A stretch of 4,787 nt of DNA from IMG/VR virus record IMGVR_UViG_2698536549_000024; one strand, written 5' to 3'. How positions within the stretch are numbered: the stretch's first letter is position 1; each line of letters starts with the position of its first letter. The notes under the pieces are model-generated. The model was not told the origin of the DNA. It saw only the letters and a program-made list of their open reading frames with translations, and ran no database searches. The position numbers and the translations under genes are program-made. Positions 1-4,787 of the stretch are shown here, one piece after another. The stretch is from a virus (lineage: Duplodnaviria; Heunggongvirae; Uroviricota; Caudoviricetes).

Positions 1-2295
1 CCGTTTCTCATCCAGTACCGGCGTCACCTGAATGCTGTTGTTTCCGGCAAACTCAAAAGCCAGTGTGTGCCATCCGTTATCAAAGACCCCGAACGTATCC
101 AGCTTCGCATTCTGCTTCTTGTGGTACATCGCGTTCAGGTTCGTCGCATCCGTCTGCAGGAAGAAGGACATCAGCATGTCGTTGCCTTCCTCTGACAGCG
201 TCACTCCCTCCGGCAGGGACGACAACTGCCAGTAAATACCCAGGGCAAACTGATTCGGCACCAGTGCGCCCGGCACCTTAAACCGCACGCTCACACGTCC
301 GCCTTTCTTCAGCAACTCTGCCCCCTGCCCTGCGGCATCATGCTCCAGAAACCAGATGTGGCTTTCCGGTTTGTTCAGTTGCAGGGCCTTACCACCGGTG
401 GCACCCTCATCACTGACCACAGCCTCAGCGATGTTTTTATTAACACTGTCTCCGCTCGCCGGTTTGTGATAATAGCGCCAGCCCTGTGATGCCAGGTCTT
501 CACCGGACGCCAGCAGACTNNNNNNNNNNNNNNNNNNNNNNNNNNNNNNNNNNNNNNNNNNNNNNNNNNGTCACCTGAATGCTGTTGTTTCCGGCAAACT
601 CAAAAGCCAGCGTGTGCCATCCGTTATCAAAGACCCCGAATGTATCCAGCTTCGCATTCGGCTTCCTGTGATGCATCGCGTTCAGGTTCGTCGTATCCGT
701 CTGCAGGAAGAAGGACATCAGCATATCGTTACCTTCTCCTGACAGCGTCACCCCCTCCGGCAGGGACGACAACTGCCAGTAAATGCCCAGGGCAAACTGA
801 TTCGGCACCAGTGAACCCGGCAACTTAAACCGTACACTCACACGTCCGCCCTTCTTCAGTAACTCCGCCCCCTGTCCGGCTGCATCATGCTCCAGAAACC
901 AGATGTGGTTTTCCGGTTTGTTCAGTTGCAGAGCCTTACCTCCCGTAGCCCCCGCATCACTGACCACCGCTTCAGCAATGTTTTTGTTAACACTGTCTCC
1001 GCCCGCCGGTTTGTGATAATAGCGCCAGCCCTGTGATGCCAGGTCTTCACCGGACGCCAGCAGACTCATCAGGGTTCGGTTACTGACCGGGGCTTCCGCC
1101 TCTCTCTCCGGACCTTCACCGGAAGGTACGGTGGGCCTCACCATATCAGGCTGTTTTCCGGTAATGAATTCAGCGGTTCTCCCGGCGTGCACCAGAATCG
1201 CCGTTGCCAGACGGTCGGAAATAATCCCCCGGCGAGCCCAGGTGCTGAAATGGCTCGCCCTGTCCTGTGACGTCCAGGTGGCTGAGCTGTCACGCCATTT
1301 CGAACCGTAATACCCGATACCCGGAATGTCCGGGTCTTCTTCCGGTTTGTTCGTCGGCACATTCACCCCGTTCTCATCCGTCATGAACGGTACGAAATGG
1401 ATATTCTTTTCCGTTTTGTTTTTATAGCTGCCGTACACCATCTGGTAGGTGGATTCGTTCTTCTGCTTCCAGAAATACGTCGTGTCCCCGCATATCCAGG
1501 GAACACCGCCAGCAGAGCCACCAACGCACTGACCTGCCATATCCGTCAGGTCTGCACGGAATTTATCAACCAGCGCACCAAACTGTGCTGCGTGATTTCC
1601 GGGCGTGCCGTCAAAATCAAATTCCCCCTGCATCCACACCACGGCAAACAGCACATTTTTCGGGTTCTTCTTCAGTGCTGCTTTTGTTCGACCGATAAGG
1701 TCCTTATACAGCGGCTTGTCCACACCCCAGCGCGCTGAATTCTCCGAGGCACCACTCGCGTCACTGTATGTGCCATCAGCTCCGGTGGTGAACGCTGAAC
1801 CACCACGACAGCACGGAACCAGCAGAATACCCGCATTCGCCGGTATAAACGGCAGCAGTTTTTTGGCGATATGCAGCCCCTGCCCCACNNNNNNNNNNNN
1901 NNNNNNNNNNNNNNNNNNNNNNNNNNNNNNNNNNNNNNNNNNNNNNNACTGCGGCGCGCCAGCTGCTTAATACGCGGGTCCGGACGGTCATATGTCTCCG
2001 GCAGCGGAAGACCTTCACCATACGACATGCCATTTGACTGCCCTGCCAGAACCACAACAAAGTAATACTCCGGGTCGCTGGTGGCACTGACAGCCACCGC
2101 CTTACCCTCATTACCGGTCACCGCCACTGGTGTGGTGACATCACCTTCCGCCGCAATGGCCTGCATCAGGGTATAAGGCGTGATGACCACCGGACTGCCA
2201 AATGGCTGCCAGCCCTCCTTCAGTTTTTGTGTCAGTCGTTCAGCAAGGTCTGACGGCGATGCCGCCCTGACCACATCGTAGTGTTTAAATGCCAT
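1..2295 (-). CDS. nanS-p: Prophage-type sialate (9-O-acetyl-N-acetylneuraminic acid) O-acetylesterase, NanS-p-like; 3' end runs off the window; interrupted by two N-runs
   Basis: Seen: ATG is the reverse complement of cat at 2293-2295, preceded by GGGAGG with a 4-nt spacer. The N-terminus MAFKHYDVVRAASPSDLAERLTQKLKEGWQPFGSPVV... continues to ...YYFVVVLAGQSNGMSYGEG. After the 1889-1947 gap the frame stays open from 1888 to the 520-569 gap and, by my hand translation, continues open to position 1 (...NNSIQVTPVLDEKR). Established knowledge: GQSN is the catalytic-serine block of the SASA/SGNH sialate O-acetylesterase family, and the N-terminal region resembles the DUF1737 segment of phage NanS-p proteins. 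Inference: assignment is from recalled motifs, not a search. The track splits this gene into ORFs 1672..2295 and 500..1888 only because the N-run lengths shift the frame. Confidence 0.75.
23..519 (-). repeat. Intragenic tandem duplication, copy 1 (distal, C-terminal copy of the duplicated domain in the esterase gene)
   Basis: Seen: 23-519 aligns base-for-base with 570-1066 at a fixed offset of 547 nt. I counted about 38 mismatches over 497 aligned bases (about 92% identity). Minus-strand translation of copy 1 (SLLASGEDLASQGWRYYHKPASGDSVNKN...NNSIQV) is about 93% identical to copy 2. Confidence 0.9.
520..569. other. N-run (50 nt): assembly gap or mask at the junction of the two intragenic repeat copies
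   Basis: Seen: 50 consecutive n. Codon phase on the minus strand differs on the two flanks (lowest codon coordinate is 2 mod 3 above the gap and 1 mod 3 below). Continuity therefore needs a true length of 1 mod 3, such as 49 or 52, not 50. Confidence 0.95.
570..1066 (-). repeat. Intragenic tandem duplication, copy 2 (proximal copy)
   Basis: Seen: same alignment as copy 1. The two copies are separated only by the 520-569 N-run. Most differences are third-position or conservative, so both copies stay open in frame. Confidence 0.9.
1889..1947. other. N-run (59 nt): assembly gap or mask inside the esterase catalytic domain
   Basis: Seen: 59 consecutive n. Complete codons abut both edges (1948-1950 above, 1886-1888 below), so an intact gene needs a gap length divisible by 3; 59 is not. 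Confidence 0.95.
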
Positions 2296-2494
2296 GAATC
2301 CTCCCGGCCGGGATAATGTTCTGAGTCAGAGAAGGCACGGACTGACCTCCGGAAACACAAAAGTCACACAGAAAAACAGCCCGCAAAAAAGAAATACGCC
2401 CTTACAGTTGCGCAAGGTGATTACTCTAAGGTATTATTAGGGTGCTGAATAAATTACTTCACGTTTTGTTATTTATTCCTTGCTTCCTTGCCAA

Positions 2495-2521
2495 CCGCTC
2501 TTCCCGGGAGCGGTTTTTTTT
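2495..2521 (+). terminator. Candidate Rho-independent terminator, plus strand
   Basis: Seen: stem ccgctc (2495-2500) pairs with gagcgg (2508-2513) around a 7-nt loop, followed by T8 (2514-2521). Confidence 0.5.
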
Positions 2522-2527
2522 ACATGT

Positions 2528-2552
2528 AAAAAGGCTCCTGCGATGAGGAGCC
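2528..2552 (-). terminator. Candidate Rho-independent terminator, minus strand (T0), convergent with the plus-strand terminator
   Basis: Seen: on the minus strand, hairpin ggctcc / 8-nt loop / ggagcc (2533-2552) is followed by T5 (reverse complement of A 2528-2532). It is separated from the plus-strand terminator only by ACATGT. Confidence 0.45.
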
Positions 2553-2801
2553 TGGATGTATGCCTAATCTCTGTATACTGCAGGTGCCGGGTGCCTCCCG
2601 GTGAACAAATGTCCGTGATATCAGTCGGCCACACAGGAAATGATACGATATCACCCCTCCGCACAGGGGGATTCACCATGCCCGTTTTTTTTAACAAACT
2701 CCTCATCAATCAGACAATCATCAACCTCATGAATTGTGAGGAATTTAACATTTCACAACACAGCCTTTTCCCTGCATAAAAAAGCCCCTCCGGAGAGGGG
2801 C
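2553..2801. repeat. Non-coding repeat unit R1 (complete) of a tandem array with about 260-bp period
   Basis: Seen: conserved blocks shared with R2 and R3. Hairpin X tgccgggtgcctcccggtg (2585-2603); hairpin Y cccctccgcacaggggg followed by attcaccATG (2654-2680); block Z gaattgtgaggaatttaacatttcacaacacagccttttccc (2731-2772); then A6 plus a GC hairpin (2778-2801). Confidence 0.85.
2778..2801 (-). terminator. Strong candidate Rho-independent terminator, minus strand (T1)
   Basis: Seen: 7-bp GC-rich stem gcccctc/gaggggc with a 4-nt loop (2784-2801), followed on the minus strand by T6 (reverse complement of A 2778-2783). On the plus strand the same hairpin is followed by ttcgct, which is not a U-tract. 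Confidence 0.7.
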
Positions 2802-3061
2802 TTCGCTACGTGTCTGTTAACCATATGCATGATGCCGGGTGCCTCCCGGTGAGTTCAGTATCAGCACCTGAACCCGCACAGAAAGGATAGAGTAGAAACA
2901 CCTGCGCTGATATGCCCCTCCGCTCAGGGGGATTCACCATGCAGAACTTTTTTAACAACTCCCCCTCAGACAGGCAAGCATCAACCATCTGAACTGTGAG
3001 GAATTTAACACTTAACAACACAGCCTTTTCCCGCACAAAAAAAGCCCCTCCGGAGAGGGGC
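2802..3061. repeat. Non-coding repeat unit R2 (complete)
   Basis: Seen: hairpin X at 2833-2851 (identical to R1), hairpin Y at 2915-2941 (cccctccgctcaggggg attcaccATG), block Z at 2991-3032 (cacttaacaacacagccttttccc), then the terminator hairpin. Block spacing to R1 is 248-261 bp. Confidence 0.85.
3037..3061 (-). terminator. Strong candidate Rho-independent terminator, minus strand (T2)
   Basis: Seen: the same gcccctccggagaggggc hairpin (3044-3061), followed on the minus strand by T7 (reverse complement of A 3037-3043). Confidence 0.7.
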
Positions 3062-3280
3062 CGATCGCTATGTATACACCATAAGCAGCATAGTGCCGGG
3101 TGCCTCCCGGTAGATTCAGCCTGACTACTGAATCTGCGTATTGTGACCATCGCTATGGAGACCATGTCAGACGCCCCTCCGCACAGGGGGATTCACTATG
3201 CTGGCTCGTTTTTACAAGACTTCCATCGATCAGACAATAGTCCATCAACCGAATTGTGAGTCATTTAACATTTCCATGAG
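3062..3280. repeat. Non-coding repeat unit R3 (truncated and diverged: lacks the CA-rich motif and the terminator)
   Basis: Seen: hairpin X at 3094-3111, hairpin Y with ATG at 3174-3200, partial block Z gaattgtgagtcatttaacattt at 3251-3273. Homology is lost after about 3275. Confidence 0.75.
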
Positions 3281-3519
3281 GTAACTGATATCCAGCTAAC
3301 AATCATCTACAATGGACGAAGCCAGTTCCAGAACTTGCCCACGGTACAGCAACAACCACTGCATACACATAATTACCACCGGACTCTCTGAACCTGCCTC
3401 CTGGCTAACCCCAGATACAACACCACCAGTCACAAAAGCATCTTATTCTGAAGTACAACTGCCGTGCGGCAGATACTAAAAGCGCCTGTATGTAACAACA
3501 TAAATATACAGGATATGTT

Positions 3520-3798
3520 TTATCCACGGGATATAATTTTGATTTCATCAAAACCGTTACTACCTGCAATTCTGTTGTACTCCTGAACAAGACTCAGTAA
3601 CTCCGAATTAGCCGCGGTGAACTCCTCACAGACGTTCCGAAGTGCATCTACATCCAGAAGAACCATCTCCTGACCTGAACGTCGATCAGGGGTACAAAAT
3701 AAAACTGTCAGACGACTGAAGACCTTTGTTCGTTCCACATTGACGGCTTCAATACGCTGTAACAGTTGGCTACATCTGATTTTCTCATCAATATTCAC
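3520..3798 (-). CDS. Hypothetical protein (92 aa), function unknown
   Basis: Seen: open frame with a GTG start (reverse complement of cac 3796-3798), weak GGTG Shine-Dalgarno, TTATAAT about 18 nt upstream. The translation is protein-like but I recognise no motif. It is co-oriented with and 89 bp downstream of the AraC-family gene. Start codon is uncertain. Confidence 0.4.
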   Translation of the reverse strand: MNIDEKIRCSQLLQRIEAVNVERTKVFSRLTVLFCTPDRRSGQEMVLLDVDALRNVCEEFTAANSELLSLVQEYNRIAGSNGFDEIKIISRG

Positions 3799-3887
3799 GC
3801 AAACACCAAATGATTATAACTCTTTATGCTGAACACATTCAGACTATATCTAATACAGTCAATCAATATATGCCTGATGAAAAAACA

Positions 3888-4613
3888 TCAGATAACGTCT
3901 GCTTTCTGCAAATATGCATAGCTCTCAGGTGGTGCACCATAATACTGGTGAAATACAGAAATGAAATAGGACTTACTTGAGTAACCACATTTTTCCGCTA
4001 TCGCTTGTCCACACTCTCGCTGGAAACATACAAGATTAACAGCAACACGCATTCGCTCCTCCAGCAACAACCGACTAAAGCTATAACCTTCATCCTTAAG
4101 TTTTCGCTTCAACAAGCTTTCGCTCATATGCAATTGTAATGCAATCACACCTAGCATCCAGCCTGCCGATATGTCGGTCTGAATTATAGCCCTTACTTTA
4201 CAGCTGATATTATTTACAGCACCGGACAAAAATAATGGCAGACGCCTGTCTGTTGCAAATAAGGAGATACATGAAAATGCGGTTATAACAGAGAAATCCT
4301 TCAAAGTATCACTGGATTCACTATGCTGGGTTATTAAAGCCTCCGCCAGTTCCGTATTGTAAATATCAGACATCAAATAAAGAGGCATTTTTGTCGGTGT
4401 ATACTCCGTCAGTTCACACTCCCTTTCCAGATACTGATTGACGACGCTGTTACTTATATCTGCCATTTTCACTCTGTCGGCATAAGCACAGAAAAGCCCT
4501 CTTATATTTCTGGCAACAAGCATAACACTTCCGGCATCGAGTGAAACTTTTTCTTTTTCAAGAAAAATATCTATCGGATAGCGAATCAGGACCACAGAGC
4601 AGGCAACATCCAT
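3888..4613 (-). CDS. AraC/XylS-family transcriptional regulator, GadW/YdeO/GadX-like (comparable to prophage-encoded regulators of the PsrA/PsrB/PatE type)
   Basis: Seen: 241-aa ORF. The N-terminus MDVACSVVLIRYPIDIF parallels GadW MTHVCSVILIRRSFDIY and YdeO MSLVCSVIFIHH as I recall them. The C-terminus has a canonical AraC double helix-turn-helix (SESLLKRKLKDEGYSFSRLLLEERM...IAEKCGYSSKSYFISVFHQYYG). Local composition is clearly AT-rich. Inference: which named paralogue it is cannot be decided without a database comparison. Confidence 0.88.
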   Translation of the reverse strand: MDVACSVVLIRYPIDIFLEKEKVSLDAGSVMLVARNIRGLFCAYADRVKMADISNSVVNQYLERECELTEYTPTKMPLYLMSDIYNTELAEALITQHSESSDTLKDFSVITAFSCISLFATDRRLPLFLSGAVNNISCKVRAIIQTDISAGWMLGVIALQLHMSESLLKRKLKDEGYSFSRLLLEERMRVAVNLVCFQRECGQAIAEKCGYSSKSYFISVFHQYYGAPPESYAYLQKADVI

Positions 4614-4676
4614 TTTGAATTAACCTGAGCAAAAAGACTTAATACCAGTATATTCCAAAAATGGCATTTTGGGAGA

Positions 4677-4787
4677 TTACTTCTGCAAACCGCTCCCGCT
4701 AAATACATCCCTGATTTCCTGCGCAGTCTGTTCAAAACGCCCGGTATCCAGCTCAACGCCAGTTGCACGACGCCCCAGCGCCATCGC
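4677..4787 (-). CDS. 3' end of an unidentified upstream gene (last 36 codons; partial at the window edge)
   Basis: Seen: minus-strand frame open from the window edge to TAA (reverse complement of tta 4677-4679), giving ...AMALGRRATGVELDTGRFEQTAQEIRDVFSGSGLQK*. The segment is GC-rich, unlike the adjacent AraC gene. A short independent ORF starting at the internal Met cannot be excluded. Confidence 0.4.
   Translation of the reverse strand, partial: AMALGRRATGVELDTGRFEQTAQEIRDVFSGSGLQK

Follow-up and report, generated by a model that had tools for sequence, protein, structure and literature searches.

Three back-to-back small RNA genes of the STnc100 family in a lambdoid prophage late region

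This work concerns a repeat array in the window, by which we mean the whole 4,787-nt stretch of IMG/VR record IMGVR_UViG_2698536549_000024 (Caudoviricetes) that was analysed. The array consists of three complete, back-to-back copies of a described phage small RNA (sRNA) family, STnc100 / EcOnc27 / PasD. Its best explanation, to which we assign a probability of about 0.88, is a head-to-tail array of three independent STnc100-family sRNA genes on the minus strand, named here U1, U2 and U3. An earlier reading of the sequence (the original prediction) had proposed prophage sRNA genes in several paralogous copies, a proposal supported by the three members of Rfam family RF02076. Its implied novelty does not hold, as the family is catalogued and any Rfam-based pipeline would annotate the units. 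Our contribution is modest: a corrected anatomy, copy-number dynamics together with module shuffling, and one candidate target.

Identity, fold and strand of the three units

An Rfam scan returned three full-length STnc100 (RF02076) matches on the minus strand, each covering model positions 1-206 of 206. Their scores of 119.5-141.2 bits (E 1e-26 to 3e-32) correspond to 2.5 to 3 times the gathering score of the model, 47 bits, and the same matches were found in strain N51 and in a relative with four units. The Rfam search proposed as a check in the original prediction was therefore positive, and the three consecutive repeats it described are present as direct repeats with a spacing of 260 nt. 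Other parts of that description needed revision. The array had been read as two complete units and one truncated, with a terminator in two of the three, while all three units are full length and each ends in a Rho-independent terminator on the minus strand. The apparent truncation arose because the units had been phased on the plus strand; the third terminator, at 2553-2532, was missed because its stem has a different sequence (GGCTCCTC...GAGGAGCC, unlike the U1 and U2 stems) and lies just outside the assumed left boundary at 2553. Predicted 3' ends near 2778, 3037 and 2528 agree with the minus-strand terminators. The boundaries 2553-3280 are too narrow, since the U1 promoter/leader block reaches about 3290 and a convergent partner gene occupies about 2400-2523.

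From 5' to 3', each unit comprises a promoter/leader block, the first strand of helix P1, hairpin Y, variable hairpins, hairpin X, the second strand of P1, a linker and a terminator (Table 1). The promoter/leader block, TGTTAAAT-N-CTCACAATTC ... TTGTCTG-N17-TTAAAA, is present in every unit, and its upstream TGTTAAAT portion is also kept in singleton units and in most family members. In the core, the 8-bp long-range helix P1 (GCAUGGUG/CACCAUGC) closes a junction with Y, one or two variable hairpins and X; U1 alone has GCAUAGUG in place of GCAUGGUG. The closing helix around hairpin Y (CCCCCUGNGCGGAGGGG) and hairpin X (CCGGGAGGCACCCGG) were found in all three units. The window contains exactly three sites for the hairpin X 15-mer, CCGGGTGCCTCCCGG, which had no match of any kind in 200 shuffles, and the 23-mer CCCCTCCGCNCAGGGGGATTCAC, which spans hairpin Y and its flank, has three sites (2654, 2915 and 3174) and none in 200 shuffles. 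Both hairpins had been called perfectly conserved, which is exact for X in each unit; Y carries one loop substitution in U2, CCGCTC where the other units have CCGCAC. The linker is about 25 nt long, mostly open, and different in U1, U2 and U3.

Table 1. Features of the array and its surroundings in window coordinates
Feature	Position	Strand	Remarks
U1, STnc100-family sRNA gene	3035..3255	-	Rfam 3230-3035, 119.5 bits; core start GCAUAGUG at 3201
U2, STnc100-family sRNA gene	2772..2995	-	Rfam 2971-2772, 141.2 bits; core start 2942
U3, STnc100-family sRNA gene	2522..2735	-	Rfam 2710-2522, 132.1 bits; core start 2681
U1 upstream flank with -10-like TGTTAAAT (3270-3263)	3256..3290	-	equivalents: U2 3010-3003, U3 2750-2743
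CTCACARTTC after each -10-like element	3260-3251, 3000-2991, 2740-2731	-	probable long-transcript start
P1, U1	3194..3201 with 3088-3095	-	compensatory changes across the family
P1, U2	2935-2942 with 2827-2834	-	
P1, U3	2674-2681 with 2580-2586	-	
Hairpin Y (RNA CCCCCUGUGCGGAGGGG)	3174..3190, 2915-2931, 2654-2670	-	one loop change in U2
Hairpin X (RNA CCGGGAGGCACCCGG)	3096..3110, 2835-2849, 2587-2601	-	invariant
U1 linker UGCUUAUGGUGUAUACAUAGCGAUCG, putative seed	3062..3087	-	
U2 linker AUAUGGUUAACAGACACGUAGCGAA, putative seed	2802..2826	-	
U3 linker AGUAUACAGAGAUUAGGCAUACAUCCA, putative seed	2553..2579	-	complementary to 4593-4612
U1 intrinsic terminator GGCCCCTCTCCGGAGGGGC then T7	3043..3062	-	
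U2 intrinsic terminator GCCCCTCTCCGGAGGGGC then T6	2779..2803	-	
U3 intrinsic terminator AGGCTCCTCATCGCAGGAGCCT then T5	2527..2553	-	stem 2553-2532
CRP-like half-palindrome TGTTA-N6-TCACA	2743-2764, 3003-3024, 3263-3284	-	fixed position before each unit
Convergent partner RNA gene	~2400..2523	+	-35 TTGCGC (2408), -10 TATTAT (2432-2437), terminator 2493-2521
Predicted U3 linker target, AraC-like mRNA +2 to +21 (UGGAUGUUGCCUGCUCUGUG)	4593..4612	-	duplex prediction
AraC-family moron gene (HTH_18/HTH_AraC, phrog_1450)	3888..4613	-	upstream of array; start 4613
SASA / NanS-p-type sialate O-acetylesterase	331..2295	-	directly downstream of array; start 2295; left end uncertain

Folding placed P1, hairpins Y and X and the terminator in U1 (z -3.4). 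U2 showed the same architecture at the same z of -3.4, its minimum free energy structure being equal to the centroid, and U3 adopted it as well, with a weak z of -1.19. The 3' strand of P1 in U3 is 1 nt short through the loss of an A, reading CACC-UGC in the window and in N51 versus CACCAUGC in isolate 07-4299 (locus L002). A search for a tRNA-like or riboswitch core returned nothing from ARAGORN and no Rfam family besides STnc100.

In order to assess the proposed pairing across the family, we collected members from 120 phage contigs (57 distinct full-length sequences) and aligned 33 representatives, including PasD2, on sequence only. In these 33 members, 94.4% of cells were paired in the proposed structure, compared with 40-51% when the partners were slid by 1-3 columns. 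Two-sided changes were observed in 19 of 33 pairs (P1, 6/8; the helix beside X, 7/7; the terminator, 6/8), and the covariation values were reached by none of 500 shuffles. Variants of the P1 pair GCAUGGUG/CACCAUGC include GUGUGGUG/CACCACAC, GCGUGGUG/CACCACGC and AUAUGGCG/CGCCAUAU. Hairpins X and Y did not vary across the 33 members, so that covariation neither supports nor opposes them; their invariance amid strong divergence suggests recognition by a partner. The pair 85-110 is G-U in 21 of the 33 sequences and would be C-A if read on the opposite strand. Frequent G-U pairs of this kind, together with the minus-strand T-runs, identify the minus strand as the RNA strand.

The same alignment bears on whether the repeats encode, or once encoded, small proteins, either from a plus-strand ATG open reading frame (ORF) after hairpin Y or from the minus-strand ORFs 2806-3165 and 2473-2709. 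A Shine-Dalgarno-like GGGGGA run lies before the ATG (CACCATGC), U1 and U3 would encode similar peptides, short PHROG families match fragments of unit-overlapping ORFs, and ribosome footprints on some EDL933 STnc100 copies have been described in the literature. However, the ATG is the complement of P1 and becomes CACCACAC, CACCACGC or CGCCATAT in distant members with compensating changes; this loss of the ATG while P1 pairing is kept argues for RNA genes rather than ORFs. The U2 frame is shifted, in line with the earlier remark that reading frames are not conserved between units, and a Pfam search of the unit-overlapping ORFs gave no match. The PHROG matches span only 16-30 residues, on both strands and in different frames, as expected from miscalled phage ORFs. 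We therefore regard a coding origin as highly improbable.

The matching families, PHROG 35554, 23494, 27294 and 24488 (all of 'unknown function'), hit fragments of ORFs 2806-3165 (minus), 2473-2709 (minus) and 2480-2779 (plus), and these fragments coincide with the conserved RNA blocks. The four families probably originate from phage records in which ORFs had been miscalled on STnc100 DNA. Such 'protein families', apparently founded on RNA genes, matter for phage annotation.

Transcript ends were estimated from Sakai homologues. The unit of prophage Sp4 (EcOnc05) measures 164 nt from P1 to terminator versus about 222 nt on Northern blots, and that of Sp5 (EcOnc27) 180 nt versus about 235/247 nt. 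Judged by these sizes, the RNAs start about 57 nt upstream of P1, in the CTCACAATTC block past the -10-like TGTTAAAT. By analogy, long RNAs of about 219 nt for U1 (~3255 to 3037), 217 nt for U2 (~2995 to 2779) and 209 nt for U3 (~2735 to 2527) are predicted. A second, P1-proximal promoter (TTGTCT-17-TTAAAA), the one that PasD has, may in addition give forms of about 160 nt.

Several other sequences around the unit starts were noted. A CRP-dependent promoter was considered, as 30 of 89 distinct upstream regions have TGTTA-N6-TCACA with its centre at -61.5 relative to the G of GCAUGG, and was dropped because this positional conservation reflects homology only. Its site scores of 13-16 out of 22 reach just the top few percent of shuffled sequences, and the site overlaps the -10 and the Northern-derived start, which makes a class I CRP site improbable. 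On the plus strand, promoter-like sites (TTAACA/TTTACA-16-GACAAT) at 2691-2718 and 3211-3238 lie antisense to the proximal promoters of U3 and U1. These sites, which reverse-complement the TGTTAA and ATTGTC elements of the units, are not conserved in U2 and possibly reflect divergent transcription or coincidence. The CUCACA within the strongly conserved CTCACAATTC block is also the target motif reported for PasD.

Copy number, module shuffling and the described family

The window is a late-region part of a lambdoid prophage from a non-O157 E. coli resembling Shiga toxin-producing strains, and positions 1948-4787 are 99.9% identical to the N51 chromosome. The late operon has its sense strand on the minus strand of the window. 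Gene order in N51 runs from antiterminator Q through tRNA-Ile, tRNA-Arg, a TolA-like ORF and an AraC-family gene to a 1.6-kb stretch without RefSeq annotation, inside which the array sits, and continues with a SASA-family sialate esterase, holin, lysozyme, Rz and terminase. The annotations of N51 and isolate 07-4299 both place the array in the late-operon slot, in the moron region between Q/PR' and the esterase-lysis genes and on the sense strand. The suggested location between late antiterminator and lysis genes is thus borne out by gene order and by Tree et al. (2014), who described, for at least 8 Sakai prophages, convergent Hfq-bound sRNA pairs placed between the moron and the ORF that follows it.

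A BLASTN comparison of copy number, also proposed in the original prediction, was positive: the near-identical prophage of isolate 07-4299 has four tandem units against three in the window. The two sequences are one clean 270-nt unit apart at ~2965, with 4 mismatches in the remaining 1.6 kb. Strict tandem arrays of up to four units occur in 4 of 120 phage-contig loci; in about nine more loci, a decayed remnant separates two full units that lie 470-490 nt apart, and each of the five Sakai prophages checked has a single unit in its late region. A tandem array with varying copy number and a different putative targeting segment per copy is the modestly new element here. A further full-length STnc100 copy (172 bits) was seen upstream of the AraC-like gene, at L001 14695-14907 in N51, about 200 nt past the right end of the window, and at L002 5967-6179, bringing the Q-to-esterase interval to 4 copies in N51 and 5 in 07-4299.

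Modules within the units are exchanged. Across 56 distinct sequences, we distinguished 18 central-module alleles and 19 linker alleles, and six of the central alleles occur with more than one linker allele. In the family sample, the U2 central module is also paired with other linkers and the U3 linker with four central modules, and the U1 central/linker combination is found only in this prophage lineage. Of 5,426 complete E. coli genomes, 2,911 contain a segment of the family. A 206-nt junction query against the 5,426 genomes returned 2,445 genomes at a coverage of at least 80%, a figure that is unusable as a tandem count because two non-colinear pieces of a single unit were joined (record spans 222-294 nt). 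Only the 78 records at an identity of at least 99%, for example the single-piece full-length match H81, may count as true U2-U3 junctions.

STnc100 is known as a multi-copy gammaproteobacterial prophage sRNA with 11 dispersed copies in EDL933, of which STnc100_4 is Northern-positive. The copy downstream of stx2B is EcOnc27 (sRNA103), which shows a peak in Hfq cross-linking and analysis of cDNA (CRAC) and runs at about 235/247 nt on Northern blots, the 247-nt form being destabilised in an hfq deletion mutant. EcOnc05, the Sakai Sp4 STnc100 unit, is Hfq-bound and runs at about 222 nt on Northern blots. PasD1 and PasD2 of enteropathogenic E. coli E2348/69 (EcOnc13 in Sakai) have been detected by Northern blot, with Hfq-dependent stability, a seed UGUGAG and targets from RIL-seq. 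Northern detection and Hfq binding of these homologues, EcOnc27, EcOnc05 and PasD, agree with the earlier proposal of an Hfq-dependent sRNA region. STnc100/EcOnc27-type RNAs adjoin Shiga-toxin genes, and EcOnc27 leader sequence variants have lately been flagged as predictors of haemolytic uraemic syndrome (PMC12711010).

Comparison of the units with RF02076 revealed a common fold, terminator and prophage late-region site and no structural difference. The first ~29 model positions are leader or promoter-proximal, and their status as RNA depends on the start site. The three members here are adjacent and not dispersed. The units occupy the same slot as EcOnc27/sRNA103, EcOnc05 and EcOnc04 (moron, sRNA, convergent sRNA, esterase). 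The linker and terminator allele of U3 is the Sakai EcOnc27 allele with 3-4 linker differences, and it is to this common linker allele that the published probe for EcOnc27 is complementary; U1 and U2 have different linker alleles. Sakai EcOnc-type units differ in being single in each prophage checked, in their central modules, and in having stx, rather than an AraC-like gene, upstream.

PasD1 and PasD2 share with the units the P1 and hairpin Y start GCAUGGUGAAUCC, the architecture, the position upstream of an esterase and a seed before the terminator. The 5' end of PasD2 is exactly the conserved GCAUGGUGAAUCC, its seed is part of the linker, directly ahead of the terminator, and both the PasD seed and the EcOnc27 Hfq-CRAC peak fall in the segment homologous to the unit linkers. 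PasD also departs from the units: its hairpin X is degenerate, its U-rich linker is longer, and its promoter is a different one that lacks the upstream CTCACAATTC block. It scored only 50 bits against the family hidden Markov model built here. As defined by Pearl Mizrahi (2021) and Zhu (2026), PasD has a UGUGAG seed in the linker and BLAST-level similarity to PasD1/2; this seed is found in none of the three unit linkers, and PasD2 aligns just over the 5' block and hairpin X region. Judged by sequence, the units are relatives of PasD, not PasD itself.

Adjacent paralogous sRNAs with a common scaffold and terminator and partly different pairing regions include OmrA/OmrB, PrrF1/PrrF2 and Qrr, which are core-genome, two-copy systems of fixed number. 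In contrast, the present array is borne on a mobile element, is found with three or four units, and has shuffled modules. The locus is a natural example of how a prophage sRNA repertoire grows, through duplication or loss of units and shuffling of linkers on an invariant scaffold. A recent preprint (Zhu et al., 2026) derives PasD and STnc100 from a common ancestor and describes PasD copies as dispersed and gained by superinfection, not by tandem duplication. The tandem array runs counter to the claim that related PasD copies come solely from superinfection.

Proposed mechanism and alternative explanations

By analogy with the characterised homologues, the U-tail and linker of each unit would bind Hfq, and the linker would serve as a seed that base-pairs with mRNAs in trans. 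Three copies could then provide three targeting specificities on one conserved scaffold in the lysogen. The array ends at a convergent plus-strand sRNA gene, forming the prophage 'dyad' of enterohaemorrhagic E. coli. Homologous recombination between units probably lets the array grow and shrink, and variable modules are swapped among family members. A secondary role in cis is also conceivable, in which the three tandem terminators stop moron-derived transcription before the lysis genes in the lysogen, and Q-modified polymerase reads past them after induction.

Several observations weigh against independent, functional sRNA genes in all three positions. With its 1-nt P1 deletion and z of -1.19, U3 may be an impaired copy, and the U1 linker allele was found in this prophage lineage alone within the family sample. 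The inferences on the 5' end conflict, as PasD RNA-seq coverage starts at P1 and not about 57 nt upstream. Expression and Hfq binding, shown for the homologues EcOnc27, EcOnc05, PasD and STnc100_4, would extend to the units by homology. Published work describes neither a function nor a validated direct target of an STnc100 member; the one effect reported for the family is that sRNA103 overexpression raises fimZ and espA transcripts. Finally, a simple seed-plus-Hfq model leaves the role of hairpins X and Y unexplained.

The cis effect might instead be the main purpose, with the units acting as a triple-terminator insulator that stops read-through from the AraC-like moron, and from any constitutive promoter, into the esterase and lysis genes of the lysogen, and the RNAs being by-products. 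Three strong minus-strand terminators do lie within 760 nt between the moron and the esterase, holin and lysozyme genes, and the Sakai stx2 and stx1 operons end in the same element. A terminator alone, however, needs neither a 130-nt core with covarying helices and invariant hairpins nor a promoter block of its own, and RNAs of the homologues accumulate, are bound by Hfq and are found in chimeras with mRNAs. We consider a mainly insulating role possible though doubtful, and an insulating role as such is compatible with sRNA function rather than an alternative to it. A cis-regulatory leader for the esterase gene, either a riboswitch or an attenuator, could be envisaged, as the U3 terminator precedes the esterase start by about 230 nt and family members are often located beside esterase genes. 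This is very unlikely: units also occur with no esterase after them, such as the one upstream of the AraC-like gene in N51, the convergent gene and its terminator separate U3 from the esterase, each unit has its own promoter-like block, and no riboswitch family was matched in the Rfam scan.

The blocks could also be chiefly recombination substrates at the mosaic boundaries of lambdoid phages, the extra copies being neutral products of unequal crossing-over. Gain and loss of whole units between near-identical prophages, the reassortment of modules, decayed partial units in some arrays and the P1 deletion in U3 would all be expected in that case. Yet promoter block, core pairing and terminator are intact in all three copies despite divergence of the variable modules, and the compensatory changes reveal selection on the RNA fold, which makes a purely neutral origin improbable. 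Thus, an array of three independent STnc100-family sRNA genes remains our preferred explanation.

AraC-like regulator, convergent partner and neighbouring genes

The neighbouring AraC-like regulator offers a testable candidate target. We screened the three linkers, the three leaders and the open stretch of the convergent partner for duplexes with four local RNAs (27 local tests), and the sole standout was the U3 linker against the translation initiation region (TIR) of the AraC-like mRNA. Among the other pairs of this local screen, U3 with the esterase TIR reached z = -2.45 and the rest were at background. In the predicted duplex (dG -26.9 to -27.4 kcal/mol), 20 of 20 mRNA nucleotides are paired as 7+6+7 bp with two G-U pairs, interrupted by just 1- and 2-nt bulges on the sRNA side. 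Its energy was reached by none of 3000 linker shuffles, no other non-self site in the window, whichever the strand, is better, and the U3 linker ranks first of 38 natural linker alleles against this target. The U3 linker is present in 12 of 12 loci with this AraC-like allele, all of one lineage, and accessibility of the site is middling.

For a second family of AraC-like paralogues (58% identical; Sakai Sp4 ECs_1087 type), the best match is linker allele CAUGAUGAUACAGAUACGC, which forms 22 bp over +2 to +28 of the mRNA at -23 to -26 kcal/mol. This linker and the ECs_1087-type gene are linked in cis in just 8 of ~53 loci, and the allele is absent from the five Sakai units checked. Sources of the (G/U/A)CAUGAUGAUACAGAUACGC linker are L002 3739-3948, which is the extra fourth unit, and loci L017, L048 and L040. 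One paralogue has G-to-A at mRNA position +4, and some linker variants have the matching C-to-U, though in different loci. No AraC-like gene was found in the late regions of Sakai Sp9 and Sp10 when psrA and psrB were sought beside their units.

These results are consistent with a cassette system of constant scaffold and exchangeable seeds, at least one of them aimed at the prophage's own AraC-like (Psr/PatE-like) regulator, a tentative idea that we would not favour at present. If true, U3 pairing would block translation initiation of the regulator, sRNAs of the family would be post-transcriptional governors of prophage AraC-like virulence and acid-resistance regulators, and such targeting could explain the rise of espA on sRNA103 overexpression. 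The U3/AraC complementarity may in part be inherited from internal leader-linker pairing. A possible kinship of the AraC-like 5' end with the unit leader is retained as a caveat: a weak local alignment was obtained for U2 only, its score was reached by 12 of 500 shuffles, and it is not significant after three tests.

The convergent plus-strand partner lies tail-to-tail with U3 and has a hairpin on its 5' side, an open stretch rich in C and U, and a strong terminator (fold z -4.6). It is 83% identical over 76 nt to Sakai Sp4/Sp15 EcOnc08/21/42 (L126 1467-1541, L125 3733-3807), an Hfq-CRAC peak region listed by Tree et al. that is convergent with an STnc100 unit in Sakai in the same position and orientation, and the published probe falls inside the homologous Sakai segment. 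The partner is a homologue of EcOnc08/21/42, and with it the published 'dyad' is complete. The Sakai RNA runs at ~271 nt, so that the partner's 5' end may be inside the esterase gene, antisense to its start, and not at the predicted promoter. AsxR (Sp5), which belongs to the AsxR/AgvB/EcOnc03 anti-sRNAs among the convergent dyad partners, has the same position relative to EcOnc27 as the partner has to U3, with -35 TTGCGC and spacing in common. An assignment as an AsxR/AgvB anti-sRNA (51-60 nt, with a ~42-nt conserved 3' region AGTATCTCATGC..TTGCCCGAACCC..) was rejected, as that 3' region is absent. No Rfam AgvB/AsxR match was obtained on the 265-nt stretch even at E <= 10, and the partner sequence differs from the AsxR/AgvB-class sequences in Fig. 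S4 of Tree et al. A perfect 8-nt tandem repeat, TTCCTTGC x2, lies at 2476-2491 within its CU-rich stretch.

The esterase gene downstream is broken in the window by N-runs at 520-569 and 1889-1947. Window 1-519 is a paralogue of the 3' part of the esterase (570-1066), 92% identical to it and joined across the first N-run, the second (59 N) corresponds to 132 nt in N51, and sequence left of 570 is not colinear with N51. The N-run lengths and the paralogous join indicate masks or scaffold gaps, and the esterase is unreadable as one ORF here. Between the AraC-like gene and the array, a 92-aa ORF at 3520-3798 (minus) matches phrog_2873 over its full length (E 1e-46) and is probably a real phage gene missed by the N51 RefSeq annotation. 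A 16-nt exact repeat on the plus strand, GGATTCACTATGCTGG, at 3189-3204 and 4314-4329 (two matches in none of 200 shuffles), ties the P1 5' strand and proximal promoter of U1 to the coding interior of the AraC-like gene and may be a trace of recombination.

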